Shown: positions 21,195 to 54,359 of the stretch, piece after piece | Position numbering within the stretch: position 1 is the stretch's first letter | How the letters are laid out: every line of letters starts with the position of its first letter | Source: Eledone cirrhosa | Taxonomy: Eukaryota | DNA: 64,000 bases | Reading direction: 5' to 3' | NCBI GenBank assembly: GCA_964016885.1 | Contig: OZ024744.1 | Coordinates: 36,208,001-36,272,000 of the forward strand | Program-made: the position numbers and the translations under genes | Notes under the pieces: generated by a model | Database searches by the model: none | Seen by the model: the letters and a program-made list of their open reading frames with translations, nothing else | Told to the model about the DNA's origin: nothing

Positions 21195-21650
21195 TTTTCT
21201 CTTTCTCTTAATTTTGAGTATATTTTTTTGACCGGCCACCTTCCTGGTGGCAAGGTTGTAAAAGAAAAGAAATTGTCAGCCCTTGAATCGCAAGAATGTT
21301 TTGCAAATTTTGAAGGTGCCAGCTATCGCAGCCATTTGTAGACTATGAATTAGGGAGCTGCGCTTTTTGTCCGCAAATCCAAGTTCAGTCATACTTTGGT
21401 CCAAGCGGGTTGGTATATAACCCGTAGCACCAATAATGATGGGTATGAAGCTAAAGGTGTATCTTGGATACTGGATTTGTAAACTCCTCATCAATGGTCC
21501 GTAGATGTCCTCCTTCTCCTGTATTTTTCTGACAACGTTTACATCAAGTGGGCAGCTGATCTCCACAACAGAACACGTTTTCAATGTGTGGTCCCAAACT
21601 ACAATAGCAGGTCGGTTGTGCTTTAATTTGGTGGCAGTTTTTATTTTCAG
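21195..21650 (-). mobile_element. 5'-truncated R4-type RLE 3' end, tail running into (TACA)n
   Basis: KHNRPAIVVWDHTLKTCSVVEISCPLD...IPIIIGATG...GTFKICKTFL; 21-bp tandem duplication at the 5' junction (21630-21672). Confidence 0.82.
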
Positions 21651-21671
21651 GGGTGGCAGTTTTTATTTTCA

Positions 21672-23560: not shown

Positions 23561-23632
<72 letters not shown>

Positions 23633-23639
23633 TTTATTA

Positions 23640-27280: not shown

Positions 27281-27419
27281 TTCTTTTTTGTTGTTTTTTT
27301 AAATTGTTATTATCATGAGTGGTTCCTTAATGTGAGCATTGCGTGGCTTAAGAATGAAATTATTAATAATTGTCTCCATTCCAGGCACAAGGCCAGCAAT
27401 CACCCAGTGCATTACCATA

Positions 27420-28350
27420 ATATAATATACTTTTTGCTGAAGTTGCCTGTTATTGTTGTCGGCTATGTCGGTGGTGGTGCTGGGGCTTTTTATATTGTTG
27501 GTGAGGAAGGGGGAGCCAGCAGTGCCATAGTTCTTGACGTTTGGCCGGTGGCCAGGTCACTAAGTCAATCTATTTTTATCTTTTGCTAGCCTCTCTCTTG
27601 TCTAGTGATACCGCCACCTTCCCCTTTCTTAAGTTAACAGGGGAATAGTGGTGGTAGCAATGAATGAGTGGTGCCGGCGGTGATGGGATAGTGGTAGCAA
27701 TGATGGATGGAGTGGTGGCGGCGTTGGTGTTGTCGTTACTGAGTTTTGTTGAATGGACTAGTATTTTTGATATGTAGTATCTGTGCGTTTGTGTCGCGTA
27801 TGTTTAATATATGTGTTGAATAGACTAGCTTTGTTTGATCTGTAGTATCTATGCGTTTCTGTCACGTATATTTAATATATGTGATGAGATATTCCCGTAA
27901 AATTGGAATTAAACATTTTGTTAAAACTTGAGACAATAATAATAGTAATTATTATTATGATGCTGGGATTGGTGGTGGTGGTGGTGAAATTGCCGTTATC
28001 TGGCTGTTATATTTAGTGTACACAGGGGGGTGATGGGGTAGGTGGTGTATCAAGTTTCTTGTGTTGGTGAAATTGCTGTTATTTGGCTGTTCTATATAGT
28101 GTAGACAGAGAGGGTTTTCTTCCATTTATAACCATTTTCTTTTTTGAATATAAAATATATAACACAAAATTGAATATTTGAGCGATATAACAATATATTA
28201 TGGATCCGAAATTTTATGAGACTTGATTCGGTGGTTTATGCATCATTTGTACTAAGAATTGTTATTTCACAATTGATTTAAATATGTTCAAAATCAAAAA
28301 CTTACGGGAGCGATTTCATGACCTTCTACCACCACGTGCGTCTTCTTCTC
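27420..28350 (-). mobile_element. Decayed Tx1-like 5' UTR + Pro/Thr-rich ORF1-like relic; homologues at 32330-33052, 48515-48990, and more weakly 15277-15960 (+)
   Basis: Shared AAAATGG(T/C)TA(T/C)AAATGG, GCTCAAATATT and CCCGTAAGTTTTTGATT blocks; short MEEN... Pro/Thr-rich frame (48564-48755). Confidence 0.55.
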
Positions 28351-28415
28351 TTATTATTATTATTATTATTATTATCATTATTATTATTATTATTATTATT
28401 ATTGTTATTGTTATT
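28351..28415. repeat. (TTA)n target tract
   Basis: Visible; further tracts at 33053-33110, 38806-38859, 44699-44751, 54351-54359, 56448-56469 and 62340-62387. Confidence 0.97.
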
Positions 28416-31400
28416 CCTTGAATCTCAGTCATTGATGTTGGTTAACTGGAAAGTCCGTTGGATTGAATATCAAGCCACTACCTGCAGCCTCAGATATTCA
28501 GGACGTATCGGAGGGTTCTTGCCGTTCCAAGCAAGCATGCCTTTTGAAGCGTTCCAAAAAGCGTGAAGGGGCCGATTTTCTTTAACCATCCCTGGAAACC
28601 TTTGGAGATAGTCCCCAGTGCGCCTATGACAATCGGGATCACTTTGACTTCATGGCAGTTCCAAATCCTTTTCACCTCCCACTTTAGGTCCTGGTATCGG
28701 TTAATTTTCTCCCTCTCCTTCTCTTGCACTCTCGTGTCGAACGGGCAGGCCACATCCACAATCAGGCACGATCTTTTTTCTTTGTCCACAACCACCAGGT
28801 CAGGTCTATTGTGTTCCAGTTTTTTGTCCGTCTGTATCCTAAAATCCCACAGCACCTTCACCTGACTGTTCTCCATCACCGCCTCTGGCCTATGCTCATA
28901 CCATTTCTCAGAATGTGGTAGATTGTTTACTTTGCACAGGTGCCAGTGCATCACCCTGCCCATCACATCGTGTCTCCAGCCCTTATAGTGGGTCTGGGCT
29001 AGGTGTTTACACTCGGACACAATGTGAGCCACAGTCTCCTCTCTCTCTCCACAGATCCTGCACAGTGGGCTAGCCTCCTCCTTGTAGATATGGTGCTTCA
29101 ACCACTTCGTTTTGAGGGCCTGCTCCTGCGCAGCCATTAGCATTCCTTCTGTAGCCTTTTTGAGGTCTCCTCTTCTCAACCAGTTCCATGTCTGTGGATC
29201 TCTAAATTCAGTTTTCTCAAAGAAGGTACTATGAAGGGATTTTCCCTTAAGGCTGCTCTTCCTCCTTGATGTTATTTCCTCCTTGGGTATCCCCTGGCCT
29301 ACTGTCCCCTCCTTCAGTACAGCTCTGAGCATTGGCTCCTTACTATAGGTCACGTATTTGTATAGGTTGTTTTTCTCCATCTGAACACAGTCCTCTATGC
29401 TGATAAGACCTCTTCCACCCTCAGATCTCCTTAGGTAGAGTCTATCGACATCACTCCTCTTGTGGAACATGTTGTAGATAGTCAATAGCTTCCTAGTCTT
29501 CCTATCCATTTCTTTTTGTTCAGCAACATTCCATCTCAGAATTCCCGCACTGTACCTAATAATAGACACAGCTCGGGAATTTACTGCGCTTATGGCATTT
29601 CTGCTGTTCAGATGTGACTTCAATACGCTCCTTACTCTCCGAATGTATTCAGTTCTTAACAATTCCTTCATTTTTTTTTTCTTTATGCCATCAGCCTCCA
29701 GAACGCCCAAATACTTGTATCCTTCCTCAGAGTCAATTTCCTTTATCATCTCACCTGTTGGTATCTGGATCCCGTTACTTCTGCTCAACCTACCCCTCCT
29801 CATCACAATGACTCCACATTTACCAATACCAAACTGCATACATATATCACTGCTGAAAATACGGACAGTGTCAACAAGCACATCCAACTCCTTCTCACTT
29901 TTCCCGAAGAGCTTAAGATCGTCCATGAAGAGGAGGTGATTGATGGTAAGCTCTCCCCTTCCCAACTTGTATCCTGCTCTCACTTTTCGCAGCATAATGG
30001 TCAAGGGCATCAGGGCAAGGACAGACAACAGAGGGGACAGGCTATCTCCCTGGAAGATACCTCTCTTGATCTTCACGCTTCCCAAGGATACTCCAGTTGA
30101 TGTCAACTCTGTCTCCCAGGACCCCATACTCCTGCCCAGCAACTGTCTGATGTTATCTGCCACCCTGAAGATCTCCAGGCTTTTGGTGATCCAGGAATGA
30201 GGCACCATGTCAAATGCCTTTCTGTAGTCTATCCATCCCATGGCAAGATCAGTGTGTCTCCTCCTGCAATTCCTCATTACCATCTTATCAATAAGCAACT
30301 GGTCCTTTGTACCACGTGACTTCTTTCGGCATCCTTTCTGTTCGTCCGGCAACAAGTTGTTTGTGTGGAGGTGATGGTAGATTTCCTCAGACACAATGCT
30401 CGTCAACAGTTTCCACATTACGGGCAGACATGTGATAGGTCTATAGTTGGTAACATCATTACCCTTGATTCGGTCTTTCATTATCAGAACTGTGGTACCT
30501 TTTGTCAACCACTCTGGCACCTCACCCGACACCAAGCAGTCATTGAACATGGCCGTCAGCTTCGGGTGGAGGGATGTTAAATGTTTAATCCAATACCCCT
30601 GCACACCATCTGGGCCTGGTGATTTCCAGTTGGTTAGTTTTTTGGCTTGCCCCTTAAGAGTTTCAACTGTGATACTCAAATCAGTCTGTTGCTGTGCCTG
30701 CTCACCGATCTCCCTCTGTACTGTCTCAATCCACCCTGCCTGGGCATTGTGTCTAACATCCTGCTCCCATATTCCTCTCCAGAATGTTTTAGCTTGTTCC
30801 GCCCCAGGGATCAAGTCGGTGCCTCTTTCTTTCCCCTCAAGCTGTCCAAACAGCATCTTCTGGTTGTTGTCGAACATGCGGTTCTGTTTATACTGACTGA
30901 CTCTGTTCTCGTATCGCCTGATTTTGGCACTCTTTGCTACAATGCGTTGCTTCAATTCCTCTATGATAATATTTAGCTTTTTACTCCTAGTTTTGTATTT
31001 TATTTCCAGTCTATTTTTAGTGCCTATGTTTTTTAGTGTCCCATTCAGTAGTGACTCAAGCTTTCCTATGTCATTTCTCATTTCCCCGATTTGCCCACTC
31101 AGTCGCTTCTTCCACCACGGCTCTGCTCTTTCTTGTCTGTTGTTTCCTCTCGCTTTTATACCAAGTAGTTTCCTCACCGTATTTGCTGTTGCTTTGAGGA
31201 TATTGTTGCACTGGTGAAGACTCCTCGCCTCAAGGTATGGGATGACTTTGTTTACCTTAGCTGTTGTTTCTTTTAACTTTTTCCTGTCTACAAATCTTAG
31301 GTTCATAGGTCTCCCACTATCATTGTTCAACTCATCTACCACTAAATTTAGGATATCAACCGAATCTTGTCCTAGCCCGTCAGCATTCATCTCCTCAGTG

Positions 31401-32020
31401 GCCGTATCTCTGTTCCAGGTATTATTTATCTCAGTATTCAGATCATTGTCTGCTTCGGGTGGTTCCTCCGCTCTCAGGACCTCCTCACCTTCATTTCCCG
31501 CCGGCTCGCTTGTCTGGCATACTACACCCGCCATCTCCAAGCCATTCTCTCTGCTCAGTTCCTCCAGTTCCAGCTCGCTTATCCACCCATTAGTTCTTAT
31601 TACCCGAGCCTGCCCGGCCAATTTTTGTTCATCTAATTTAAATAAACCAATCTCGTTCCAGATGTTATGCATCCGTCTCCTGTAGCCCCTCTCCTTGGGG
31701 TTACTTTTCAGGTAGCATTGCATAACAGTTCTATTCAATTCTTTCGTCCAGTTGGTTCTGGCCCCTTTCCTTCTTCTTCTTCCTCCAACATCAGCAGTAT
31801 TTCGTTGACAGTCAGGTTCCTGCTGCTGAGCCAGGGGGCACCTGTTGGGTGAGAGTCTGTCACATGACGTTCTAGTCTCCATTTCACCGTTATTCGAACT
31901 GTTTATGTTCGATATTTAAACACTCTTATCGAGGATTGGCGAATGTATGTTTACATAGCCATCTGTGGATCCGCCATCCCACTTGGCCCTTGTGTGGCAT
32001 TATCACCACGCTGTATACGG
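28416..32020 (-). mobile_element. R4/Dong-clade element, intact copy
   Basis: Single long ORF, short 3' UTR ending ...GAGATTCAAGG-(AAT)n. Confidence 0.95.
28490..31882 (-). CDS. 1130-aa R4/Dong polyprotein: N-terminal domain, RT, CCHC knuckle, PD-(D/E)xK restriction-like endonuclease
   Basis: NWTKELN..MQCY..GYRRRM; WKSPGPDG; NYRPITCL; WIDYRKAFD; RGIFQGDSLSP; FMDD; YKYLG; CRICGEREETVAHIVSEC; RH; RPDLVVVD...VDVACP...K. Confidence 0.95.
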   Translation of the reverse strand: METRTSCDRLSPNRCPLAQQQEPDCQRNTADVGGRRRRKGARTNWTKELNRTVMQCYLKSNPKERGYRRRMHNIWNEIGLFKLDEQKLAGQARVIRTNGWISELELEELSRENGLEMAGVVCQTSEPAGNEGEEVLRAEEPPEADNDLNTEINNTWNRDTATEEMNADGLGQDSVDILNLVVDELNNDSGRPMNLRFVDRKKLKETTAKVNKVIPYLEARSLHQCNNILKATANTVRKLLGIKARGNNRQERAEPWWKKRLSGQIGEMRNDIGKLESLLNGTLKNIGTKNRLEIKYKTRSKKLNIIIEELKQRIVAKSAKIRRYENRVSQYKQNRMFDNNQKMLFGQLEGKERGTDLIPGAEQAKTFWRGIWEQDVRHNAQAGWIETVQREIGEQAQQQTDLSITVETLKGQAKKLTNWKSPGPDGVQGYWIKHLTSLHPKLTAMFNDCLVSGEVPEWLTKGTTVLIMKDRIKGNDVTNYRPITCLPVMWKLLTSIVSEEIYHHLHTNNLLPDEQKGCRKKSRGTKDQLLIDKMVMRNCRRRHTDLAMGWIDYRKAFDMVPHSWITKSLEIFRVADNIRQLLGRSMGSWETELTSTGVSLGSVKIKRGIFQGDSLSPLLSVLALMPLTIMLRKVRAGYKLGRGELTINHLLFMDDLKLFGKSEKELDVLVDTVRIFSSDICMQFGIGKCGVIVMRRGRLSRSNGIQIPTGEMIKEIDSEEGYKYLGVLEADGIKKKKMKELLRTEYIRRVRSVLKSHLNSRNAISAVNSRAVSIIRYSAGILRWNVAEQKEMDRKTRKLLTIYNMFHKRSDVDRLYLRRSEGGRGLISIEDCVQMEKNNLYKYVTYSKEPMLRAVLKEGTVGQGIPKEEITSRRKSSLKGKSLHSTFFEKTEFRDPQTWNWLRRGDLKKATEGMLMAAQEQALKTKWLKHHIYKEEASPLCRICGEREETVAHIVSECKHLAQTHYKGWRHDVMGRVMHWHLCKVNNLPHSEKWYEHRPEAVMENSQVKVLWDFRIQTDKKLEHNRPDLVVVDKEKRSCLIVDVACPFDTRVQEKEREKINRYQDLKWEVKRIWNCHEVKVIPIVIGALGTISKGFQGWLKKIGPFTLFGTLQKACLLGTARTLRYVLNI

Positions 32021-32451
32021 ACACACATAAACAAACAAACACACGGGCAGAAAGGGCCCCAAAAATGAATAAGCATAAGTTTCATTGTAATGTAGTATTC
32101 GAATGTCTGACTTAGTTTTTGTTTTTTAAGTTTTACTTTTTCCCCCCTCTTCTCTGTCCGTCCGCCTGCTTCTCTCTTCATTCTTATTTTCTTTACGTTT
32201 TTGGGGTTTCTTTTTTTGTTTTTGTTTTTCTCTGTTTTTCTCGTTTTTTACTGTTGTTGCTGTGCTGCTTTTGTTGTTTGTTTTTTCTTTTTTCTTTTGA
32301 GTCTATCTATATATTTTGATGCCTTCCTCTTTGTTAATAGTAGGAATTCTATAATGTAGAAGTGGTAGCCAGCAGAGACTAGCGGCGTTGGCGATACTGA
32401 GACAGTGGTGGCGGTGATGTCGATACCGAGGCAGTGGTGGCGGTGATGCGA

Positions 32452-33048
32452 CCGTATTACTGTAGTGATGGTGCTGTAGCGGTGGCAGCAGCAGTGAAGG
32501 AGTCAGGGGGTGGTGGCGGCGGTGATGGGATAGTGGTGGTAATGATGGCCGTAGTGAGCGGTGGCGGTGAAGGTGAAAATGCTGTTGTGTTTAGTGTACA
32601 CAGATGATGGGGTGGGTGGTGTATCTAGTTTCTGGTGTTGGTGAGTTTCGCTGTCCTATATAGTGTAGCCAGAGGAGAGGAGGGGGGGGGGGGTTCTTCT
32701 TCTTCCATTTATAGCCATTTTATTTTTTTTTTTTTTTGGATATACAGTGTACAATACAAAGTTGAATATTTGAATATTTGAGCCGTATTACTGTAGTGAT
32801 GGTGCTGTAGCGGTGGCAGCAGCAGTGAAGGAGTCAAGGGGTGGTGGCGGCGGTGATGGGATAGTGGTGGTAATGATGGCCGTAGTGAGCGGTGGCGGTG
32901 AAGGTGAAAATGCTGTTGTGTTTAGTGTACACAGATGATGGGGTGGGCGGTGTATCTAGTTTCTGGTGTTGGTGAGTTTAGCTGTCCTATATAGTGTAGC
33001 CAGAGGAGAGGAGGGGGGGGGGGGTTCTTCTTCTTCCATTTATAGCCA

Positions 33049-33052
<4 letters not shown>
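32452..33052. repeat. Near-identical direct duplication, ~270 bp, period 331
   Basis: 32452-32721 repeats at 32783-33052. Confidence 0.9.
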
Positions 33053-33110
<58 letters not shown>

Positions 33111-36100
33111 GGCGACCTACGTAGGAAATCGTATTATCGTGAGCTCCGCAAACGTTTGTTATTTCCGTTTGTTTAAAAATTGCCATTTATGGAAAATTTT
33201 ATTGTAAACTGTTTATAAGCACACATACATTGTTTTCCGAAAAGGACACCCAAAAAGATTGGGGCCTTGTGCCCAAAATTTTAACTTTTATTATTATCCA
33301 AAATTTTCTTTGAAAAAAAATGGCTAATTCCCCTCTGCACGAAGCAGCTGAAAGCCTTCCTCACAAAATAACACCTCACACCGACACCACCATTGTAAAT
33401 GTTACTACGTTTGCCAACACAAAAAAAAAATATAAGCAGTAGCAATATTTTAAATTTGTCTCAGGCAGACATTCATTTCCCGCCATTACCAATGACTGCA
33501 GGTGTTAAACCCTCCACCACCACCACCACCGCGACAACCACCACCACCACCACCACCGCGACAACAGAAACAAAAGAAGAAAAAAATAAATTAACTCGTG
33601 ACGTCGAAATGAAATCAAGCAAAATGGACTCTTCCCCACCAAAGACGACTGACGTCACCACCACCACAACTGAAAATAAAATTAATATTAACGATAGCAA
33701 CAACAACAACAATGACATTATAAAACCGACCCTCAGTTTCGCCATCGTAGCAAAACAATTCGAAGCGTTCACGGTAACTCAAGAAGATTTAGAAAATGCC
33801 AAACAAATGGTAAAGAAAGATGGGTACAGGGTCAGCCTCACCCCCCACCTAATAAAATGGAGCATCGGCGCCTGTGCACCGTGTCGTATAGAACAATAAA
33901 TGTAAAATCGCGCCGAGTGGAACGGGCATCCGAGTCCCAAATCCAAAAAGCTTTGGGACATGTGTGGGCAAGAAAAACCCACATCAGACGTGGGCAAAAG
34001 TATGGAACCGTGGATGGGTTATTTGAAACACCAGAGGAGGCTAGAGAACACTCCATGGCCCCATTAAAAAGTGACGACTTCACACTCGTCCCAAGCTATT
34101 GTGGCCAGAGACTCGTAAAGATCAGGGTGACCCACGTTCCACCGGCCATCGAAATTCCCTGGCTAATAGCGGCTGTCATCGCCGGCATCGAGGCCAACAC
34201 GAAAATAATAACAATAGCAAAAGAAAAGCAGGAAAACTGGTCCGGATCTGGGATGGAGCTCCTGATCCAAGCGGACCAAAAAAGCATTGAGGAGATCCCA
34301 GAGGTAATAGACCTCACTGACGGCAGCCACCTCACGGTAATTGTCGAGGGCAGAAGACCTAGGTGTGTCGTTTGTGGTGAAGGAACCCACCTAAGGGCTT
34401 TCTGCCCTCAGGCTAAAAGGTTGAGGCCACCTCTCCTACCCACCCCAGTGACACAACCATCAACACCACCAGTAGCAGAGATGCCAGCAACAACTGTAGC
34501 AGCAACAACAGAAGCAACTATAACAGCAACAACCCCAGCAACAGTAGCAAAACCAACACCACCACCACCCAACGCTTCAGAACTAGCACCAGCGCCTACA
34601 CCATCCACCACACCACAACCAAAACTAACGGCTGTGGAGAATGTTCCACTCCCCGGCCTATCACAACTGGAGACAGATTGTGACGACGAGGTGTGGGAAA
34701 CGATATCCGGAAAAAAAAAAAGAAACCAAAAAAGAAAAAATTCTCTTCCTTCCCCCTCCAAAAACAAAATACAGAGGGAAACAAATAAACTAAGAAACAA
34801 AAAAGTTAGGACAGATATGCCACCATCCACACCAGCATCACCAACCCCATCAACCCAAACACAAACACAACACCAGCATCACAGAAAAAGACTACACAAC
34901 AACCCCAAAATTCACACCACCTCCACACATACAAATCACTCGCATCACACAGAAAACGTACATGACACTAAAACAAAAATTCCCCAAAGACATCGGAGAC
35001 TTCCGACAAGCACTCTCCAGGAGGATTTATAAGGACATCCTTCATGAGGAGGCCACAAGCAGTGAAAAGGATGGAAAAACCGTCCTTCCCCTACGCGAAG
35101 TAAGGTAAGTGGTCTTTCCCATCTTTTCCACTCCTTTTCAACATGACCTCACTCAGAATAGGCAGCATAAATGCGCGTGGCTTGGGGTCGTCATGGAAGC
35201 AGGGCCACCTGCTCAACGACCTCAGGTCACTAAACATAGATGTAGTGGCCATCAGCGAGACCAGAATCTCCGAAGCACAGGCTTTCGCACCGATCTTCGG
35301 CGGCTACGATGTGTACGCATATCCCAGCCGTCCTGGATCGGGGGGAGGAGTTGCTGTGCTTTTTCGGAGAGGTTTGGATCTTGCCATACGGGCCATCTTC
35401 CTGGACCCAGAAGGTAAGTTGGTGGTGCTGGACGTGACCAGCGGAGACGGGCAAGCTTTCAGGTTAGTGGCCGTCTATGCCCCGACAGGAGCAGGGCGGC
35501 CTGATTTCTTCCGGCGTCTGGAGACCTTTCTTGGAACGTCCCGCTCTTTAGTGTTAGTGGGCGACTGGAACGGGATCTTAGATGCACGCTGGGATTGTGT
35601 GGGATTAGTGGATAGGGAAGGGGGGTGCAAGAGTCTCACCAACCTGCTCAGACGTTTTGAACTGTCTGACAGGTACCGAATGGATTTCCCGAATGTACCA
35701 ATGTGGACTTGGACAAATCGCATAGGGTCATCCAGATCATATCTAGATAGAGTATTTTGTAGGGAAATAGATAGGTCTAGCATAGGCTGTCCACAATTCA
35801 AGATAGTCAGCTACACGGACCACAAATTCGTGATCTGTGTGCTTGACTTAGATAGGCTTCATAGATAAGGACCCGGCTACTGGAAGCTAAACGCGTCCTT
35901 ACCAGCGCGCAAGGCCTACAGAGACCGGATTAGCGAACTAGTTAAGCGAGCGTTGACGGGGGCCATCGTCAACAACAAGTGGTGGTTTGCTCTGAAAAGA
36001 GCAATTAGAATAGAGTCCATTAGGTTTAGTAAGACTTTAGCAATAGAGAAAAATAGAGCAGACGGAGAATTAGTTAGAAAATTAGATGAGGCGCTTAGCA

Positions 36101-38804
36101 AAGGCATCGCGACCGACGTACTTGCGGCGAAATTGGCCCTTGACCAATTCTTCAATGCAAAGCACGAAGGCTGCGTTGTCAGAGCTAGGGTGCGTGCTCT
36201 CAGACACGAGGGGACGAAAGCCGTTGAATGGGCCCGAGTGGCGGAGGCGCGTCGTGGCAACAAAGCCACGATCCGGTCTTTGGTGGACCACGACGGGCGC
36301 ATGCTACTCGATCCCGGGCAAATGTGTGAAGCTTTTCAGCGACACTTCGCTCAACTGTTCGGGGGCAGTGGCGGGCCGGATCGAGGGATGGACTTTAGTG
36401 TCTACCTCGACGGACTGCCGCGGCTTTCGGCCACTGAGGCGGAGTGTTGCGAAAAGCCGATAACAACCGCTGAAGTACGGGATGCAATGACTAGTTGCAC
36501 AAGGGGTAAATCGCCTGGTTTGGATGGTCTGCCCTATGAACTTTACGTACAAATGCCAAACTTGTTCGGAGGCCTCTTGGCGGACGTCTACTGCAACTGG
36601 CAACAGAACGGGAGAATTCCCAGCTCTGTGAGCCGAGGAGCGGTGGCGCTGCTGAGAAAGGATCCGAACAAGGGGGATAACATAGATAATTTTAGGCCCA
36701 TAACTCTGCTAAACACAGAGTTCAAGATTTTGGCCAAGGTGCTAGCAAAGAGGTTGGCGCTTGTCGTTGCTGGTCTGGTGGGAGAGGCACAGACATGCGC
36801 CATTCCCGACAGATCCATCCACGACAACCTCCACCTCATGCGATACATCGTAGAGAGGGTAGCTAGGGAACCTGGCACAGGTGAGTCTTTGATCAATTTA
36901 GATCAGTCGAAAGCCTTCGATAGGGTCGACCATCGTTACCTAACGGCAGTCCTGAGGGCGGCTGGCTTTGGGCCCGTCTTCAGAGGCTGGATCGCTGCCA
37001 TGCACAGCGACATCTGCTCTGTAGTGAGAGTGAACGGTCACCTTTCGGAACCGTTCAACATCATGCCCTCGGTCCGCCAACGATGTCCCCTCTCGTCCCT
37101 ATTGTACGTATTGACTCTCGAGCCATTACTGCACAAGCTGGAGACGATGAGGGGGGTCCCGCGCGAACTGGGGTGCGGAAGATCCGTGTCAGCATATGCC
37201 GACGATGTCACCGTAGTGGTGTCGAACGCCAAACACATCGAGGCGATCGGCACTACACTAAGAGAATACGAAGCGGTGACAGGAGCAATGATCAACCAGG
37301 AAAAGTCAGTGGGCCTGCAGCTCGGCACCTGGAGAGGCAGGTCCATGCCGTCCAACAGCGTCGTCGGGCGCTGGACAGACGGACCGGCTAAATTGCTGGG
37401 GGTCTGGTTCGGTCCAGACCTCCAGACGGACAAAAACTGGGACGAGGCGACGATCAGGGTGGCTTCTCTCACCCAGAAATGGGCGGAGAGGAAGCTATCC
37501 CTGAAAGGTCGAGCGGAGGTGGCGAATGCGTACATCGCATCCGTCATCTACTACCGCCTGACCGTCGTACCTTGTCCTAAGCCCCGCCTGACTGCGCTGG
37601 AGCGTTTGCTCTTTCGCTTCTTGTGGAAGGGGCGCGCTCCGATGGTCAGGCGGTCCATCTGCTGTCAACACCAGCTACGTGGAGGGCTGGGCATGCTGTG
37701 GCTGATGATGCGCAGACACGCGCTCAGGCTACGACATCTCCACCTCTTCCTCGACGGTGATCAGGTGTGGTCGCCGTTTGCAAGATACGTTTTTCCACAG
37801 CTCGTCTCCTTGACGGAGCTGCAGTCCTGGGTCAAGCGAAGACCGAGAGGGAGCGCTTGGAGACTGGAATGTCTTCAGGCGCTCACAGCCCTCGACCAAT
37901 CGGGCATTGTGATCGGTGGAAACTCCACCTTGGCGTTCTATAGGGGATTAGTGGAGGGGAAGTGCGACGACGTACTTGGAGAAACTCTAGGCGTCGACGA
38001 AAATCAACTAGCCAATCTCTTCGGAAGGACTTTCGGGCCGGGGCCTATGGACAGCTTCCAGAAATCCCTGGCCTGGCAGTGCTACCGAGGAGCTTTGCCA
38101 GTTCGGGATAAACTCTACAGGCATGGAGGTGCCGTCAGACGGGCATGTCCGAGATGCGCGCAGGGCGACGAAACCGTCATGCACGCACTCGTCCAGTGTC
38201 CGAGCATTGCTGACTTGTGGGTTTATGTCGAACACCTGCTGTCACGTGTAGGACGGATCCAGCTATCAGCTGAGTCCATCGTGAGGATTGCCCCACCCCC
38301 TTCCTTTAGCCTGGAAGGGCAGGCAGTTTTTATCTGTCTGGTGGCCATGGCGAAAGAGATAGTATGGTGGACACGTTTGAAAGGGCTGAAGACGAGCACT
38401 TACCTCTTCGGTGATGCCCTGATTAACTTTTTCAAATTTCATTTGAAAAGGAAAATCAGGGTAGAGAGGGAAGTGCTCTCTTCCCAGCATTTTGTTGAAA
38501 GATGGGTGAGAGAAGCAAGTATGGCCCGAATGAATGGGCCTTCTCTGAGTATGTGTCTGTAAATTAAAGGTGGAAAACTGGGAGAGGGCACTTGCCCTGG
38601 TGGTCAGGGCCACTGTGGTCTTTTAATGGGCTTTCTCCACAAATGTCCCTTGGAAGTCTCCCCCCTATTGGGGAATTTTTCTTTGTTATTTTATTTCAAC
38701 CTCTGTTTTTTTACACGCAGAAATGCCCATTTGTACCGTCCTGTATTGTCCTGTACTGTCCTTAATGTCTACTTTATGTGAACCCTTGTGGTTAATAAAG
38801 AAAA

Positions 38805-38805
<1 letters not shown>
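33111..38805 (+). mobile_element. Tx1-like L1-clade element, copy A (ORF1 frameshifted and partly deleted; ORF2 stop at 35866-35868)
   Basis: Starts GGCGACCTACG after (TTA)n; ORF1 knuckle CVVCGEGTHLRAFCP; ORF2 APE + RT (YADD) + CPRC..H..C; ends AATAAAGAAAAC-(ATT)n. Confidence 0.93.
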
Positions 38806-38859
<54 letters not shown>

Positions 38860-39068
38860 GGCGACCTACGTAGGAAATCGTATTATCGTGAGCTCCGCAA
38901 AGGTTTGTTATTTCCGTTTGTTTAAAAATTGCCATTTATGGAAAATTTTATTGTAAACTGTTTATAAGCACACATACATTGTTTTCCGAAAAGGACACCC
39001 AAAAAGATTGGGGCCTTGTGCCCAAAATTTTAACTTTTATTATTATCCAACATTTTCTTTGAAAAAAA

Positions 39069-41011
39069 ATGGCTAATTCCCCTCTGCACGAAGCAGCTGA
39101 AAGCCTTCCTCACAAAATAACACCTCACACCGACACCACCATTGTAAATGTTACTACGTTTGCCAACACAAAAAAAAATATAAGCAGTAGCAATATTTTA
39201 AATTTGTCTCAGGCAGACATTCATTTCCCGCCATTACCAATGACTGCAGGTGTTAAACCCACCACCACCACCACCACCGCGACAACAGAAACAAAAGAAG
39301 AAAAAAATAAATTAACTCGTGACGTCGAAATGAAATCAAGCAAAATGGACTCTTCCCCACCAAAGACGACTGACGTCACCACCACCACAACTGAAAATAA
39401 AATTAATATTAACGATAGCAACAACAACAACAATGACATTATAAAACCGACCCTCAGTTTCGCCATCGTAGCAAAACAATTCGAAGCGTTCACGGTAACT
39501 CAAGAAGATTTAGAAAATGCCAAACAAATGGTAAAGAAAGATGGGTACAGGGTCAGCCTCACCCCCCCACCTAATAAAATGGAGCATCGGCGCCTGTGCA
39601 CCGTGTCGTATAGAACAATAAATGTAAAATCGCGCCGAGTGGAACGGGCATCTGAGTCCCAAATCCAAAAAGCTTTGGGACATGTGTGGGCAAGAAAAAC
39701 CCACATCAGACGTGGGCAAAAGTATGGAACCGTGGATGTGTTCTTTGAAACACCAGAGGAGGCTAGAGAACACTCCATGGCCCCATTAAAAAGTGACGAC
39801 CTCACACTCGTCCCAAGCTATTGTGGCCAGAGACTCGTAAAGATCAGGGTGACCCACGTTCCACCGGCCATCGAAATTCCCTGGCTAATAGCGGCTGTCC
39901 TCGCCGGCATCGAAGCCAACACGAAAATAATAGCAATAGCAAAAGAAAAGCAGGAAAACTGGTCCGGATCTGGGATGGAGCTCCTGATCCAAGCGGACCA
40001 AAAAAGCATTGAGGAGATCCCAGAGGTAATAGACCTCAACGACGGCAGCCACCTCACGGTAATTGTCGAGGGCAGAAGACCTAGGTGTGTCGTTTGTGGT
40101 GAAGGAACCCACCTAAGGGCTTTCTGCCCTCAGGCTAAAAGGATGAGGCCACCTCTCCTACCCACCCCAGTGACACAACCATCAACACCGCCAGTAGCAG
40201 AGATGGCAGCAACAACTGTAGCAGCAACAACAGAAGCAACTATAACAGCAACAACCCCAGCAACAGTAGCAAAACCAACACCACTACCACCACCAGCAAA
40301 ACCAACACCACCACCACCACCCAACGCTTCAGAACTAGCACCAGCGCCTACACCATCCACCACACCACAACCAAAACTAACGGCTGTGGAGGATTTTCTA
40401 CTCCCCGGCCTATCACAACTGGAGACAGATTGTGACGACGAGGAGTGGGAAACGATATCCGGAAAAGAAAAAATTCTCTTCCTTCCCCCTCCAAAAACAA
40501 AATACAGAGGGAAACAAATAAACTAAGAAACAAAAAAGTTAGGACAGATATGCCACCATCCACACCAGCATCACCAACCCCATCAACCCAAACACCAACA
40601 CCATCACCATCATTATCCCCAGCACCACCATCACCTACACCACAAAAGTCGCCAAAATGCGAAACAGAAACAGACCCACAACAAACGCAAATAAAACAAA
40701 ACAACCAAAACGATACACACTACACAGCATTAAATTTGAACAACAAGCAATTATTACACTACATCCAACACAACACCAGCATCACAGAAAAAGACTACAC
40801 AACAACCCCAAAATTCACACCACCTCCACACATACAAATCACTCGCATCACACAGAAAACGTACATGACACTAAAACAAAAATTCCCCAAAGACATCGGA
40901 GACTTCCGACAAGCACTCTCCAGGAGGATTTATAAGGACATCCTTCCTGAGGAGGCCACAAGCAGTGAAAAGGATGGAAAAGCCGTCCTTCCCCTACGAG
41001 AAGTAAGGTAA
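39069..41011 (+). pseudogene. Tx1 ORF1 (RRM-like region + CX2CX4HX4C knuckle, Pro/Thr-rich), frameshifted near 40465
   Basis: ORFs 39069-40526 and 40445-41011 overlap; copy D is continuous across this point. Confidence 0.85.
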
Positions 41012-41045
41012 GTGGTCTTTCCCATCTTTTCCACTCCTTTTCAAC

Positions 41046-44000
41046 ATGTCCTCACTCAGAATAGGCAGCATAAATGCGCGTGGCTTGGAGTCGTCATGGA
41101 AGCAGGGCCACCTGCTCAACGACCTTAGGTCACTAAACATAGATGTAGTGGCCATCAGCGAGACCAGAATCTCCGAAGCACAGGCTTTCGCACCGATCTT
41201 CGGCGGCTACGATGTGTACGCATCTCCCAGCGGTCCGGGATCGGGGGGAGGAGTTGCTGTGCTTTTTCGGAGAGGTTTGGATCTTGCCATACGGGCCATC
41301 TTCCTGGACCCAGAAGGTAAGTTGGTGGTGCTGGACGTGACCAGCGGAGACGGGCAAGCTTTCAGGTTAGTGGCCGTCTATGCCCCGACAGGAGCAGGGC
41401 GGCCTGATTTCTTCCGGCGTCTGGAGACCTTTCTTGGAACGTCCCGCTCTTTAGTGTTAGTGGGCGACTGGAACGGGATCTTAGATGCACGCTGGGATTG
41501 TGTGGGATTAGTGGATAGGGAAGGAGGGTGCAAGAGTCTCACCAACCTGCTCAGACGTTTTGAACTGTCTGACAGGTACCGAATGGATTTCCCGAATGTA
41601 CCAATGTGGACTTGGACAAATCGCATAGGGTCATCCAGATCATATCTAGATAGAGTATTTTGTAGGGAAATAGATAGGTCTAGCATAGGCTGTCCACAAT
41701 TCAAGATAGTCAGCTACACGGACCACAAATTCGTGATCTGTGTGCTTGACTTAGATAAGCTTCATAGACGAGGACCCGGCTACTGGAAGCTAAACGCGTC
41801 CTTACCAGCGCGCAAGGCCTACAGAGACCGGATTAGCGAACTAGTTAAGCGGGCGTTGACGGGGGCCATCGTCAACAACAAGTGGTGGTTTGCTCTTAAA
41901 AGAGCAATTAGAATAGAGTCCATTAGGTTTAGTAAGACTTTAGCAATAGAGAAAAATAGAGCAGAGGGAGAATTAGTTAGAAAATTAGATGAGGCGCTTA
42001 GCAAAGGCATCGCGACCGACGTGCTTGCGGCGAAACTGGCCCTTGACCAATTCTTCAATGCAAAGCACGAAGGCTGCGTTGTCAGAGCTAGGGTGCGTGC
42101 TCTCAGACACGAGGGGACGAAAGCCGTTGAATGGGCCCGAGTGGCGGAGGCGCGTCGTGGCAACAGAGCCACGATCCGGTCTTTGGTGGACCACGACGGG
42201 CGCATGCTACTCGATCCCGGGCAAATGTGTGAAGCTTTTCAGCGACACTTCGCTCAACTGTTCGGGGGCAGTGGCGGGCCGGTTCGAGGGATGGACTTTA
42301 CTGTCTACCTCGACGGACTGCCGCGGCTTTCGGCCACTGAGGCGGAGTGTTGCGAAAAGCCGATAACAACCGCTGAAGTACGGGATGCAATGACTAGTTG
42401 CACAAGGGGTAAATCGCCTGGTTTGGATGGTCTGCCCTATGAACTTTACGTACAAATGCCAAACTTGTTCGGAGGCCTCTTGGCGGACGTCTACTGCAAC
42501 TGGCAACAGAACGGGAGAATTCCCAGCTCTGTGAGCCGAGGAGCGGTGGCGCTGCTGAGAAAGGATCCGAACAAGGGGGATAACGTAGATAATTTTAGGC
42601 CCATAACTCTGCTAAACACAGAGTTCAAGATTTTGGCCAAGGTGCTAGCAAAGAGTTTGGCGCTTGTCGTTGGTGGTCTGGTGGGAGAGGCACAGACATG
42701 CGCCATTCCCGAAAGATCCATCCACGACAACCTCCATCTCATGCGATACATCGTAGAGAGGGTAGCTAGGGAACCTGGCACGGGTGGGTCTTTGATCAAT
42801 TTAGATCAGTCGAAAGCCTTCGATAGAGTCGACCATCGTTACCTAACGTCAGTCCTGAGGGCGGCTGGATTTGGGCCCGTCTTCAGAGGCTGGATCGCTG
42901 CCATGCACAGCGACATCTGCTCCGTAGTGAGAGTGAACGGTCACCTTTCGGAACCGTTCAACATCATGCTCTCGGTCCGCCAAGGATGTCCCCTCTCGTC
43001 CCTATTGTACGTATTGACTCTCGAGCCATTACTGCACAAACTGGAGACGATGAGGGGGGTCCCGCGCGAACTGGGATGCGGAAGATCCGTGTCAGCATAT
43101 GCCGACGATGTCACCGTAGTGGTGTCGAACGCCAAACACATCGAGGCGATCGGCACTACACTAAGAGAATACGAAGCGGTGACAGGAGCAATGATCAACC
43201 AGGAAAAGTCAGTGGGCCTGCAGCTCGGCACCTGGAGAGGCAGGTCCATGCCATCCAACAGCGTCGTCGGGCGCTGGACGGACGGACCGGTTAAATTGCT
43301 AGGGGTCTGGTTCGGTCCAGACCTCCAGACGGACAAAAACTGGGACGAGGTGACGAGCAGGGTGGCTTCTCTCACCCAGAAATGGGCCGAGAGGAAGCTA
43401 TCCCTGAAAGGTCGAGCGGAGGTGGCGAATGCGTACATCGCATCCGTCATCTACTACCGCCTGACCGTCGTACCTTGTCCTAAGCCCCGCCTGACTGCGC
43501 TGGAGCGTTTGCTCTTTCGCTTCTTGTGGAAGGGACGCGCTCCGATGGTCAGGCGGTCCATCTGCTGTCAACACCCGCTACGTGGAGGGCTGGGCATGCC
43601 GTGGCTGATGATGCGCAGACACGCGCTCAGGCTACGACATCTCCACCTCTTCCTCGACGGTGATCAGGTGTGGTCGCCGTTTGCAAGACACGTTTTTCCC
43701 CAGCTCGTCTCCTTGACGGAGCTGCAGTCCTGGGTCAAGCGAAGACCGAGAATGAGCGCTTGGAGACTGGAATGTCTTCAGGCGCTCACAGGCCTCGACC
43801 AATCGGGCAATGTGATCGGTGGAAACTCCATTTTGACGTTCTATAGGCGATTAGTGGAGGGGAAGAGCGACGACGTACTTGGAGAAACTCTAGGCGTTGA
43901 CGAAAATCAACTAGCCAATCTCTTCGGAAGGACTTTCGGGCCGGGGCCTATGGACAACTTACAGAAATCCCTGGCCTGGCAGTGCTACAGAGGAGCTTTG

Positions 44001-44465
44001 CCAGTTCGGGATAAACTCTACAGGCATGGAGGTGCCGTCAGCCGGGCATGTCCGAGATGCGCGCAGGGCGACGAAACCGTCCTGCACACACTCGTCCAGT
44101 GTCCGAGCATTGCTGACTTGTGGGTTTATGTCGAACACCTGCTGTCACGTGTAGGACGGATCCGGCTATCAGCTGAGTCCATCGTGAGGATTGCCCCGCC
44201 CCCTTCCTTTAGCCTGGAAGGGCAGGCAGTTTTTATTTGTCTGGTGGCCATGGCGAAAGAGATAGTATGGTGGACACGTTTGAAAGGGCTGAAGACGAGC
44301 ACTTACCTCGTCGGTGATGCCCTGATTAACTTTTTCAAATTTCATTTGAAAAGGAAAATCAGGGTAGAGAGGGAAGTGCTCTCTTCCCAGCATTTTGTTG
44401 AAAGATGGGTGAGAGAAGCAAGTATGGCCCGAATGAATGGGCCTTCTCTGAGTATGTGTCTGTAA
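41046..44465 (+). CDS. 1139-aa Tx1-like ORF2: APE endonuclease, RT, C-terminal zinc finger
   Basis: GSINARG, ISET, VYAP, VGDWN, LDRVF, TDH, GPGYWKLN, KSPGLDG, NFRPITLLN, LDQSKAFD, VRQGCPLS, AYADD, CPRC..ETVLH..C. Confidence 0.95.
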   Translation: MSSLRIGSINARGLESSWKQGHLLNDLRSLNIDVVAISETRISEAQAFAPIFGGYDVYASPSGPGSGGGVAVLFRRGLDLAIRAIFLDPEGKLVVLDVTSGDGQAFRLVAVYAPTGAGRPDFFRRLETFLGTSRSLVLVGDWNGILDARWDCVGLVDREGGCKSLTNLLRRFELSDRYRMDFPNVPMWTWTNRIGSSRSYLDRVFCREIDRSSIGCPQFKIVSYTDHKFVICVLDLDKLHRRGPGYWKLNASLPARKAYRDRISELVKRALTGAIVNNKWWFALKRAIRIESIRFSKTLAIEKNRAEGELVRKLDEALSKGIATDVLAAKLALDQFFNAKHEGCVVRARVRALRHEGTKAVEWARVAEARRGNRATIRSLVDHDGRMLLDPGQMCEAFQRHFAQLFGGSGGPVRGMDFTVYLDGLPRLSATEAECCEKPITTAEVRDAMTSCTRGKSPGLDGLPYELYVQMPNLFGGLLADVYCNWQQNGRIPSSVSRGAVALLRKDPNKGDNVDNFRPITLLNTEFKILAKVLAKSLALVVGGLVGEAQTCAIPERSIHDNLHLMRYIVERVAREPGTGGSLINLDQSKAFDRVDHRYLTSVLRAAGFGPVFRGWIAAMHSDICSVVRVNGHLSEPFNIMLSVRQGCPLSSLLYVLTLEPLLHKLETMRGVPRELGCGRSVSAYADDVTVVVSNAKHIEAIGTTLREYEAVTGAMINQEKSVGLQLGTWRGRSMPSNSVVGRWTDGPVKLLGVWFGPDLQTDKNWDEVTSRVASLTQKWAERKLSLKGRAEVANAYIASVIYYRLTVVPCPKPRLTALERLLFRFLWKGRAPMVRRSICCQHPLRGGLGMPWLMMRRHALRLRHLHLFLDGDQVWSPFARHVFPQLVSLTELQSWVKRRPRMSAWRLECLQALTGLDQSGNVIGGNSILTFYRRLVEGKSDDVLGETLGVDENQLANLFGRTFGPGPMDNLQKSLAWQCYRGALPVRDKLYRHGGAVSRACPRCAQGDETVLHTLVQCPSIADLWVYVEHLLSRVGRIRLSAESIVRIAPPPSFSLEGQAVFICLVAMAKEIVWWTRLKGLKTSTYLVGDALINFFKFHLKRKIRVEREVLSSQHFVERWVREASMARMNGPSLSMCL

Positions 44466-44698
44466 ATTAAAGGTGGAAAACTGGGAGAGGCCACTTGCCC
44501 TGGTGGTCAGGGCCACTGTGGTCTTTTAATGGGCTTTCTCCACAAATGTCCCTTGGAAGTCTCCCCCCTATTGGGGAATTTTTCTTTGTTATTTTATTTC
44601 AACCTCTGTTTTTTTACACGCAGAAATGCCCATTTGTACCGTCCTGTATTGTCCTTAATGTCTACTTTATGTGAACCCTTGTGGTTAATAAAGAAAAC

Positions 44699-44751
<53 letters not shown>

Positions 44752-44752
<1 letters not shown>

Positions 44753-44845
44753 CCCACCGAGGTTAACTTTGCCTTTCATCCTTACGGCCTCGATAAAATA
44801 AATACAGTGGGATAATTGCTGGCCTTGTGCCAATTATAGAAACAA
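44752..44845 (+). mobile_element. 5'-truncated SINE inserted in the (TTA)n tail of Tx1 copy B
   Basis: CCGAGGTTAACTTTGCCTTTCATCC...GCTGGCCTTGTGCC...AGAAAC-(AATT). Confidence 0.78.
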
Positions 44846-44870
44846 TTATTATTATTATTATTACTGTTAT

Positions 44871-47800
44871 TTGAGTCTCAGACATTGATGTTATTTAACT
44901 GGAAAGTTTGTTGAAATGAATATCAAACCACTACCTGCAGCCTCAGACATTCAGGACGTATCGGAGAGTTCTTGCTGTTTCCAGCAAGCATGCCTTTTGA
45001 AGTGTTCCAAAACGCGGGGCTGGACTAATCTTCTTTAACCATCCTTGGAAACTCTTTGAGATATTAACTAGTGCGCCTATGACAATCGGGACGACCTCGA
45101 TTTCATGGCAGTTCCAAATCCTTTTTAACTCCCACTTTAAATCCTGATATCGGTTAATTTTCTCCCCCTCCTTTTTTTTTGCACTCTTGTGTCAAAGGGG
45201 CAGGCTACATCTACAATCAGGCACGATCTTTTTTCCTCGCCCCAAACCAGTAAGTCAGGCGTATTGTGTTCTAATTTCTTGTCCGTCTGTATCCTAAAAT
45301 CCTATAGCACCTTCACCTGATCGTTTTCTATCACCGACTCTGGCTTACGTTCATACCACTTCTCAGAATGTGGTAAATTGTTTACTTTGCATAGATGCCA
45401 GTGGATCACGCTGCCTATCACATCATGTCTCCAGCCTTTATAGTGAATCTGGGCTAGGTGTTTGCACTCGAATACAATGTAAGCCACAGTGAGCTAGCCT
45501 CCTCCTTGTCAATATGAAGTTTCACCCACTTCGTTCTGATGGCTTGCCCTTCTGTAGCTTTTTAAAGGTCTCCTCTTTTTAACCAGTTCCATGACTGTGG
45601 ATCTCTAAATTTCTTTTCTAAAAGAAGGTGCTATGAAGGGATTTTCCGTGAAGGTTGCTCTTCCTCCTTGTTGTTATTTCCTCCTTGGACATACCCTGGT
45701 CTATTGTCTTCTCCTTCAGTACAATTTTGAGCATTGGCTCCGTACTGTCAGTCACATATTTGTGCAAGTCGTTTTTCTCCATCTGAACAGAGTCCTCTAT
45801 GCTGATAAGACCTCTTCCACCTTCATATCTCTTTAAGTAGAGTCTATCGACATCACTCCTCTTGTGGAACATGTTGTAGATAGTCAATAGCTTCCTAGTC
45901 TTCCTATCCATTTCTTTTTGTTCAGCAACATTCCATCTCAGAATTCCCGCACTGTACCTAATAATAGACACAGCTCGGGAATTTACTGCACTTATGGCAT
46001 TCATACTATTTAGATGTGATAGTAATACGCTCCTTACTCTCCTTATGGACTTAGATCTCATAAATTCCTTCATTTTTTTTTTCTTGACGTCATCTGCTTC
46101 CAGAACACCTAAATATTTGTATCCATCTTCAGAGTCAATTTCCTTTTCCATCTCACCTGTTGGTACCTGGATTCCGTTGCTTCTGCTCAATGTACCTCTC
46201 TTCATCTCTAGAACTCCACACGTATTAATACCAAATTCCACACATATATCATTGCTGAAAATACGGACATCCAACTCCTTCTTACCCTTCCCAAAGAGTT
46301 TAAGATGGTCCATAAAGAGGAGGTGGTTGATGGTAAGCTCTCCTCTTCCCAACTTGTATCCTGCTCTCACTTTTCGCAATATAACGGACAGGGGTATCAG
46401 GGCAAGGTCAAATAGCAGAGGGGACACACTATCTCCCTGGAAGATAACTCTCTTGATCTTCACGCCTCCCAAGAATTCTCCACCTGATGTTAACTCTGTT
46501 TCCCAGGAATTCATACTTTTGCTCAACAACTGTCTGATGTTATCTGCATTCTTGAAAATCTCTAGGCTTTTGGTTATCCAAGAATGAGGTACCATGTCGA
46601 ATGCTTTTTTGTAATCTATCCATCCCATGGCAAGACCAGTGTGTCTCCTCTTGCAATTCCTCATTACCATCTTATCAATAAGTAACTGGTCTTTTGTACC
46701 ACGGGACTTCTTTCGGCATCCTTTCTCTTCATCCTGTAACAAGTTGTTTATGTGCAGGTGATGGTAGATTTCCTCAGACACAAAATCTTGTTAACAGTTT
46801 CCACATTACGGACAGACATGTGATAGGCCTATAGTTGATAACATCATTACCCTTGATTCGGTCTTTCATTACCAGAACTGTGGTACCTTTTGTCAACCAC
46901 TCTGATACTTCACCCGACATCAAGCAGTCCTTGAACATGGTTGTCAGTTTCGGGTGGATGGATGTTATATTTTTAATCCAATACCCTTGCACACCATCTG
47001 GGCCTGGTGATTTCCAGTTGGTTAGTTTTTTGGCCTGTATTTTAAGAGTTTCAGCTGTGATACTCAAATCAGTTTGTTGGTGTGCTTGTTCACTTATCTC
47101 CTTTTGAGCTGTCTCAATCCACACTGCCTGACTATTATGTTCAACATCCTGCTCCCATATTCCTCTCCAGAATGTCTTAGTCTGTTCCGCCTCAGGGATC
47201 ACGTCGTTGCCTCTTTCTTTCCCTTCAAGCTGTCCACACAACATCTTCTGGTTGTTGTCAAACATGCGGTTCTGTCTATACTGACTAACTCTGTTCTCAT
47301 ACCGCCTAATCTTTGCACTTTTTGCTACAATGCGTTGCTTCAGTTCCTCTATGATAATATTTAGCTCTTTCCCCCTAGTTTTGTATTTTATTTTCAATCT
47401 ATCTTTAGTGTCTATGTTTTGTTGTGTCCTATTCAGTAAAGACTCACACTTTCCAATGTCTTTTTGCCTCATATACTCCACTCTCCATTTCCAACTTAAT
47501 CTTTCTGCTCAGTTCCTCCAGTTTCAACTCGCTTATCCATCCATTAATTCTTATTACCCGAGCCTGCCCGGCCAATTCTTGTTCATCTAATTTAAATAGA
47601 CCAATCTCGTTCCAGGTGTTATGCATCCGTTTCCTATAGCCTTTTTCCATGGGGTTACTCTTCAGGTAACACTTCATGACAGTTCTATTCAATTCTTTCG
47701 TCCAGTTGGTTCTTGTCCCATTCCTTCTTCTTCCTCCAACACCAGCAGTATTTGGATTTGCTGGGCCAGGGAGCACTTGGTGGGTGAGAGTCTTTCATAT

Positions 47801-47920
47801 CATGTTCCAGTTTTCGAACTGTTTAGGTTCCACATTTAAACACTCATATCGGGGATTGGTGAATTTATGGTTACATAACTACCGGTGATTTTAGCGTGGC
47901 ACCATCACGCTGTAGACGGA
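44871..47920 (-). mobile_element. R4/Dong element copy 2 (decayed paralogue of 28416-32020)
   Basis: ORF pieces 47444-47776, 46774-47481, 45618-46781 and 45302-45487 are collinear with the 1130-aa ORF; same 3' UTR. Confidence 0.93.
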
Positions 47921-48243
47921 AGTAAATAAAGAAACAAATAAATAAATAAAAACATAAAAATTAAACATAAGTTTCATTGTAATGTTTGAATGTCTGACTT
48001 AGTTTTTTTTTTCCTTTTTGTTTTTCAAGGCCAGTAACATCGGTTACTAGTGTTGTTGTTGCTGCTGCCTTTTTTTAAATTTTAGCTACGCTAAGTTCGT
48101 AGTCGTAGCAACGAGGAAGATAGGGGAGGTGTTGTGTTCAAAACTTTTGAGATTTGTTTTTTTTTTGATGTTGCGTTTGTTTTTGTCTGTGTTCTGCTCA
48201 GTCATTTTTCGACTTGTTGCTTATCATTATTATTATTGTTTGA

Positions 48244-48420
48244 AGGGCGGTGGATTTGCAGTATCGGTAGAGGGTCGGATGCCATGCTTTGACGTATAGA
48301 GTTACGGCCCTTGCCATTCTGAGTTCAAATCCCGCCGAGGTTAACTTTGCCTTTCATCCTTACGGGGTCAATAAAATAATATACCAGGTAATTGCTGGCC
48401 TTGTGCCAAAAGTAGAAACA
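48244..48420 (+). mobile_element. Full-length tRNA-derived SINE with Pol III A/B boxes and (TTA)n tail
   Basis: A-box-like TTGCAGTATCGG, B box GAGTTCAAATCCC, body shared with the other copies. Confidence 0.8.
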
Positions 48421-48996
48421 ATTATTATTATTATTATTTGACATCGTTTAAACTAAACATTATGAGAGAATTTAAAGATACAACGACAATAATAATTATT
48501 ATTATGGTGTTGTTATTGGCTACTAAATCAGTCTATTTATATCTTTTGGTAGCTATCTCCTTTCTAGGCACTATTACCTTCCCTCTCCAGGAGGTAGTGA
48601 GGGAATAGTGGTGATAGCGATGATGGAGTGGCGACGGTGGTGATGGGGTAGTACTGTAGTGATGGTGTTGTTGCTGCTGTCGGTTTGTCTCTAGCTAAAT
48701 TTTGTGGTGGTGGTGGTGTTGGTGGTGAAATTATTTGGCTGTTGTTTTCTTCCATTTGTGACCATTTGTAACCATTTTCTTTTCTGACTATAACATTTCT
48801 GATACAAAATTAAATATTTGAGCCATATGCCAGAGTGTTATGTGTTGTCACTTCCTGAGAGTTAAGAAGGGTGCCTTATGTCCCATTTGTAATAATAATT
48901 ATTCTATCACAATTGTTTTAAATATGTAAATAATCAAAAACTTACGGGACCAATTCCATAACACTCTATCCACTATGTGCTTAGTCTTCCCTTATT

Positions 48997-54350: not shown

Positions 54351-54359
54351 ATTATTATT

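Follow-up and report, generated by a model that had tools for sequence, protein, structure and literature searches.

What is the sequence that stands in front of the R4/Dong-like long interspersed nuclear elements (LINEs) in a repeat array of Eledone cirrhosa, and where does it come from? The question is raised by a 64,000-nucleotide stretch of contig OZ024744.1 (assembly GCA_964016885.1, positions 36,208,001 to 36,272,000), the whole of which is called here the window. From 23.6 kb to its end, the window is filled by a LINE array with (TAA)n spacers, with Tx1-like copies on its plus strand and those of the R4/Dong type on its minus strand. The original prediction for this DNA described the order relic, spacer, Dong and (TAA)n on the minus strand at 48990-44871 and 33052-28416, which we could confirm at these coordinates together with the motifs common to both spacers, and proposed that Dong had acquired its 5' end from a co-resident Tx1 element. 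We found that the so-called relic forms the genuine 5' end of these R4/Dong-like LINEs and travels with each element. Moreover, two families, named here Dong-A and Dong-B, share a 220-nt head, and we think it reasonably likely that this head is a Tx1-type 5' untranslated region (UTR), captured long ago by Dong-A, passed on to Dong-B and presumably used as a promoter.

The young Dong-A copy of the window (28416-33052, minus strand) has just one open reading frame (ORF), 1141 amino acids from stop to stop (28490-31915, minus strand). A Pfam scan detected a reverse transcriptase (RT; RVT_1, E=2.6e-22) in this ORF, no apurinic/apyrimidinic endonuclease (APE; no Exo_endo_phos match) and, by Pfam only and with no profile-profile comparison, no domain in the N-terminal region of the protein. 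The C-terminal part carries the motifs of a CCHC finger at residue 952 and of a PD..D restriction-like endonuclease (RLE) at residue 1038. We assigned Dong-A to R4/Dong from its single ORF, these motifs and its target; the homologs in our RT tree carry no element names. In front of the ORF lies the leader (31916-33052, minus strand), made here of a head remnant, an A/C-rich low-complexity tract with a 331-bp duplication (32452-33052, minus strand) and an A-rich spacer; the copy is 5'-truncated within the head, its start falling at about head position 215. The composite leader measures 1.0-1.4 kb.

Using the spacer of Dong-A and the start of its ORF as a query, we found 40 places at 100% identity in the 3.0-Gb genome. 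The leader was contiguous with the Dong-A body in all 30 loci fetched, 18 of which start at positions 1-6 of one head. These 30 junctions sit on three chromosome-scale contigs, and their flanking sequences are varied (13 groups among 25 loci, some loci being redundant). Given this variety of flanks and the contiguity of leader and body across loci, the local segmental duplication that had been named beforehand as the contrary outcome is excluded. With a query internal to the ORF, 15 of 30 Dong-A copies start at head positions 1-6 and the starts of the others are scattered to position 820, one of them clipped by the locus edge; 11 of these loci were also found with the spacer query. Likewise, of 30 Dong-B copies selected through their ORF, 13 begin no more than 8 nt away from this same head. 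As had been proposed, leader and body move genome-wide as one unit. From head to (TAA)n, Dong-A measures 4.50 or 4.85 kb in 9/9 fetched full-length candidates, the longer form being the carrier of the 331-bp duplication, and the 1141-residue ORF is intact in 8 of these 9 copies; Dong-B measures about 5.0 kb, (TAA)n being reached at 4.8-5.2 kb in 10/10 copies fetched at 6 kb. Triplet (TAA)n runs flank the copies of both families at both ends. Also, in raw reads of a second sample that shares the species label of the top-matching sample, the first base of the head joins a triplet repeat. In other read runs, the Dong-A ORF was covered and the head was not (X7 and X11), or head and Dong-A were covered and the Dong-B ORF start was almost uncovered (X4 and X6), absent contig coverage proving nothing in either case.

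The third relic predicted at 28350 is indeed a leader but not a relic, since it forms the 5' end of the second family: a Dong-B copy runs from 28350 to about 23642 on the minus strand, with a broken ORF, an approximate 3' end and a head of about 219 nt that ends in an A-run and an ATG (28132-28350, minus strand). When this head was used as a query, 29 of 30 loci matched to the end of the relic, and one locus (L034) joins the relic head to a Dong-A body. The proteins of the two families are 35-44% identical over most of their length (44-46% in the RT core), and we found no DNA similarity between their ORFs, whereas their first 350 nt are 79% identical as DNA. In an RT tree built by a quick method from 67 rows, with 57 of the 120 listed homologs included, Dong-B clusters with a family D (55-62% identity) and other outside proteins, and Dong-A clusters with outside proteins to which it is up to 69% identical. 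Judging by this tree, Dong-A and Dong-B are not sister families, and it is almost certain that these unrelated families have one leader in common.

The heads show a different kinship. Young Dong-A heads are 85% identical to Dong-B heads and only 73% identical to old Dong-A heads, and they reach 97.8% identity with those of a Dong-B subgroup, B2, which comprises 5 dispersed loci among 30 and carries the young Dong-A leader sequence on a Dong-B body reaching the Dong-B 3' end. The main Dong-B leader has one segment in common with old Dong-A (68-71% identity). The head tree thus contradicts the RT tree, which fits with at least two leader transfers between the families. With an old head as query, 30/30 loci found carry the old head and most continue into a Dong-A body within the fetched flank; because old Dong-A copies already carry the head, transfer from A to B is the simplest direction. 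Together, these comparisons suggest that the leader likely passed from Dong-A to Dong-B at least twice. We also noticed that (GAA)n, and not (TAA)n, precedes some Dong-B heads (L035, L037 and L050), echoing the first bases of the head itself.

Then, we compared the heads with the 5' UTRs of the Tx1-like elements. The young Tx1-like UTR of the window (33111-33323, plus strand; 213 nt including the ORF1 start) stands head-to-head with the young Dong-A copy, (TAA)n lying between them. The likeness of relic and Tx1 UTR on which the original prediction had drawn fared unevenly against shuffles: the quoted pair, a 28350-type head and the young Tx1 UTR, is marginal (z 3.5 local, 4.0 global), the best of 500 shuffles outscoring the real local alignment, whereas the old head at 48771-48990 (minus strand), the variant nearest to Tx1 5' UTRs, stands out against the same UTR (z 9.2 local, 8.0 global). 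With a profile made only of Tx1 sequences (20 UTRs, 4 of 11 heads of lineage T4 included), 8/8 old Dong-A heads scored 12-30 bits, for 9.6 bits in the best of 600 shuffles, and Tx1-like heads held out of the profile scored 12-57 bits. In 925 kb of loci, some of them redundant, 36 of 37 old-head matches to this profile reached 10.7-29.9 bits. Among the 42 matches that could not be assigned there, the top one (28.4 bits) proved to be a further Tx1-like lineage, T5, and the next, the best unrelated one, had 8.5 bits. The matches run collinearly, with the same spacing, through most of the 220-nt head and terminate at the ATG. Pairwise z values were 3.0-8.0 between Dong and Tx1 heads and 3.5-11.5 among Tx1 heads; once the A-run and ATG had been trimmed, the Dong-Tx1 values were 2.6-7.5, and 30 natural AT-rich controls did not exceed 3.4. 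In the reciprocal search, a Dong profile gave T3 and T4 heads 10.7-24.9 bits. The head is therefore probably a distant member of the Tx1 5' UTR family of this genome, which would make the homology real but ancient.

The Tx1-like elements have two ORFs, are target-specific and encode APE, RT and a zinc finger in ORF2; ORF1 had no Pfam match, and the Tx1 label comes from this architecture and the original prediction, not from a tree with named Tx1 elements. Elements neighbouring the fetched loci revealed more lineages, T2 to T5 and possibly T6. Each lineage has a UTR of 205-230 nt, closed by an A-run and the ATG of ORF1, and the UTRs are 41-57% identical to one another. T1 and T2 (L201-L203 compared with the window copy at 38860-44699) are about 95% identical in ORF2, 43% in the 5' UTR and about 53% in the ORF1 core, a mosaic from which 5' module exchange is read within Tx1 too. 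The segment with a hairpin ahead of the ATG forms a good fold in lineages T2, T3 and T4 (z from -2.3 to -5.7), but in neither T1 nor the Dong heads. As a side observation, the hairpin of the young Tx1 5' UTR (33250-33280, plus strand) resembles 3' tails of a short interspersed nuclear element (SINE) and of Tx1, by weak profile matches.

In which direction did the head move? As a negative control we used a third R4-like family, Dong-C, which sits in (CATA)n (5279-8120 in the window, also 21291-21659, minus strand; 1766 candidates in a genome search): in 25 loci its 5' UTR measures only about 60 nt before the ORF, and none of the 25 matched the head. Dong-D (L313-L332), nearer to Dong-B than Dong-A is, lacks the head and has its own leader of 1.5 kb, laid out as in Dong-A and Dong-B, with two related units of about 210 nt, of which the second closes with an A-run and an ATG ahead of an A/C-rich tract. 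Homology of this leader to the head could not be shown, its z of at most 3.1 falling inside the control range. The head therefore occurs throughout the Tx1 lineages seen, but only here and there among Dong families. Also, the ATG at its end opens ORF1 in Tx1, whereas in Dong the frames that it opens have 14-89 amino acids and differ between copies, moving with the length of a C-run that is 5-14 nt in the 30 young loci. Since the head is general in Tx1 and patchy in Dong, and its ATG opens ORF1 only in Tx1, transfer from Tx1 to Dong appears to be the better-supported direction. What was passed on does not seem to have been coding: we rejected the ORF1 stub that Dong had been supposed to acquire, as there is no conserved frame and the similarity is of low complexity only, and a short likeness to the C-terminus of Tx1 ORF1 was dropped when it was not found in the other Tx1 lineages.

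A route for such a capture can be proposed. Either insertion or a template switch would have set a Dong copy down behind the 5' end of a Tx1, in sense orientation; a sense fusion such as the rare one at L304, where a Tx1 body passes on the same strand directly into a 5'-truncated Dong-A (positions 2727-2729), could place a Dong body in this way. The fused unit would be transcribed from the Tx1 promoter, the Dong protein would start at its own 3' end and reverse-transcribe the whole fused RNA, and the Tx1 ORF1 start would decay into short upstream frames. Adjacent Dong-Dong pairs have the same orientation in 215 of 223 cases. Since Dong families that insert into a common array do so on one strand, the leader could have been carried from one family to another in this way, and same-strand tandem insertion would ease transfer from Dong to Dong, which is consistent with the more recent A-to-B swaps.

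Several observations weigh against a Tx1 origin of the head, which we nevertheless hold to be quite likely. Against the Tx1 profile, young Dong-A heads score at most 8.4 bits and Dong-B heads at most 4.1, which is background level, and both are tied to Tx1 via old Dong-A alone. Identity of the Dong heads to the Tx1 UTRs is 41-53% across the four lineages aligned, none of which is a close donor, so that capture from the co-resident young Tx1, as first imagined, is not borne out; a pattern search aimed at a closer Tx1 donor returned 2 loci, neither of them a donor. In the alignments, which are weak and divergent, the Dong heads form a separate branch that is not nested in any Tx1 lineage. The reciprocal profile leaves T1 and T2 heads below 10 bits, and 1 of 900 shuffles reaches 14.3 bits. 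Beyond low complexity, we found no homology of the Dong post-ATG frames to Tx1 ORF1. The opposed orientation of Tx1 and Dong holds for 94 of 96 adjacent pairs in the fetched, partly redundant loci, and sense neighbours, 2 of 96, are accordingly rare. Finally, the long leader that Dong-D has of its own, with a like layout, indicates that such leaders may arise by other routes. The want of a close donor, the low identity, the non-significant young heads, the separate branch and the unrelated leader of Dong-D would all suit a reading in which Dong-A and Dong-B do share and swap a leader, and it came to look like Tx1 by converging on promoter motifs of the host or by separate recruitment from some third source. 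We consider this unlikely, given that the similarity is collinear over most of the head with matching spacing, persists after trimming, lies above the natural AT-rich controls and is greater for old than for young Dong heads.

That the head was born on Dong or as a free module and was then taken up by Tx1, or moved both ways, would fit with the exchange of 5' modules seen between T1 and T2; we regard it as improbable, as the head occurs in at least five mutually divergent Tx1 lineages, compared with two non-sister Dong families, and its ATG is an ORF1 start in Tx1 only. A local accident behind the junction, whether segmental duplication or nested relics, is already refuted by the 30 dispersed loci and has practically no chance. 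A further reading takes the head for a self-cleaving ribozyme, or another RNA structure, by which the 5' end is set as it is in silkworm Dong, and not for a promoter. The 5' end is sharp, with starts piling up at the first base of the head, and Dong and R4 ribozymes cleave precisely at the 5' end, silkworm Dong self-cleaving there (PMC3774820). However, the first 150 nt of the head folded no better than shuffles (z 0.5-0.6), Rfam had no match in the head at gathering level, and a hepatitis delta virus (HDV)-like descriptor, used without a positive control and such that an unusual ribozyme may escape it, matched nowhere in the head and elsewhere at shuffle level. On these three results we rejected a ribozyme at the head and consider it very improbable. 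The head would likely act as the internal promoter of Dong-A and Dong-B.

Further signals were noticed around the leader. A conserved fold lies just before the Dong-A ORF (31870-31990, minus strand; z -2.5); its traits are HDV-like, and it may be a ribozyme that has decayed. As an internal ribozyme marking an older 5' end it was rejected, as it fails the strict descriptor and 0 of 30 copies start there. A splice-donor-like motif also lies near position 30-53 of most Dong and Tx1 heads (28296-28305 in the window, minus strand), and an acceptor-like site precedes the Dong-A ORF (32010-32040, minus strand); a spliced leader found no support, an exact search for the spliced junction having given 0 genomic copies.

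Elements of the R2/R4 type are generally thought to be promoterless and to depend on co-transcription and ribozyme release. Switching of 5' ends is known in LINEs, its sources being rarely identified; ORF1 has been exchanged among APE-type clades, and Dualen/RandI elements hold both endonuclease types in one element. Dong-A would resemble these last two cases in uniting parts of different LINE clades and differ from them in having gained a non-coding 5' module only, with no coding part. Dong-A agrees with the R4/Dong clade of B. mori, ostracod and O. vulgaris in its single ORF, RT, CCHC finger, RLE and (TAA)n: the structure and TAA target of ostracod Dong have been described, along with a Myb/SANT-like domain at the N-terminus in the clade (PMC7998251), for octopus there is a Dong consensus whose ORF is full (PMC9115989), and O. 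vulgaris has 5 recently active Dong-R4 families and 13 L1-Tx1 families (PMC13282606, whose main text lacks the terms "UTR" and "chimer"). Unlike silkworm Dong, which self-cleaves at its 5' end (PMC3774820), Dong-A has a composite leader with a Tx1-related head and no detected 5' ribozyme.

Closer parallels are the 5' end switching of tobacco RTE LINEs, for which template switching or insertion beside a promoter has been proposed, and the 5' UTR replacement of mammalian L1 cited with it (bioRxiv 10.1101/2022.11.04.512097). As there, a new 5' UTR is joined to a conserved body. Unlike there, where the source is within the clade or unknown, one leader links RT lineages that are about 45% identical, and its head appears to trace to an APE-type clade whose RT is about 24% identical. 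A Tx1-to-R4 case would therefore add a cross-clade variant to the 5' switching known within L1 and RTE, its traced source appearing to cross the RLE/APE divide. Our literature searches found no Tx1-to-R4 UTR capture; Repbase, Dfam, supplementary repeat libraries and subscription journals lay outside their scope and may hold such leaders, which repeat libraries would split or mislabel. As young, intact and near-identical copies exist, promoter capture is directly testable. The shared arrays suggest that a common target site may bring unrelated elements near enough to recombine. More tentatively, and as something that we find possible rather than likely, deeply separate LINE clades in one microsatellite niche might share a promoter pool, the Tx1-born 220-nt module, once captured by an R4/Dong lineage, having put self-driven transcription in place of ribozyme-based release from host transcripts and having moved repeatedly among Dong families, with each transfer launching an expansion.

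The rest of the array completes this picture. The (TAA)n target or tail array between Dong-B and the young Dong-A copy lies at 28351-28415, with further arrays at 23565-23641, 33048-33110, 38806-38859, 44700-44751 and 62340-62387. On the plus strand, the young Tx1-like UTR opens a copy with two ORFs (33111-38805), which is followed by a copy with an intact ORF2 (38860-44699; APE, RT and zinc finger). The old Dong-A copy (44871-48990, minus strand) has decayed; it shows an internal deletion and bears a SINE in its leader, and its head is abutted by an older, 5'-truncated Tx1-like copy (48990-54350, plus strand). Then come a 5'-truncated Dong-A fragment (54351-56447, minus strand) and two more Tx1-like copies in tandem (56447-64000, plus strand), the second continuing past the window end. 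The SINE, which we take to be of tRNA type, was noticed at 44753-44862, 48241-48438 and 27355-27410 (minus strand); it has inserted repeatedly into old Dong-A leaders, and a fragment from its 3' part has become fixed, in sense orientation, within the Dong-B leader. Outside the array, a decayed RTE-like LINE (APE, RT and C2H2 fingers) flanked by TAT runs was seen at 16830-20320 on the plus strand.

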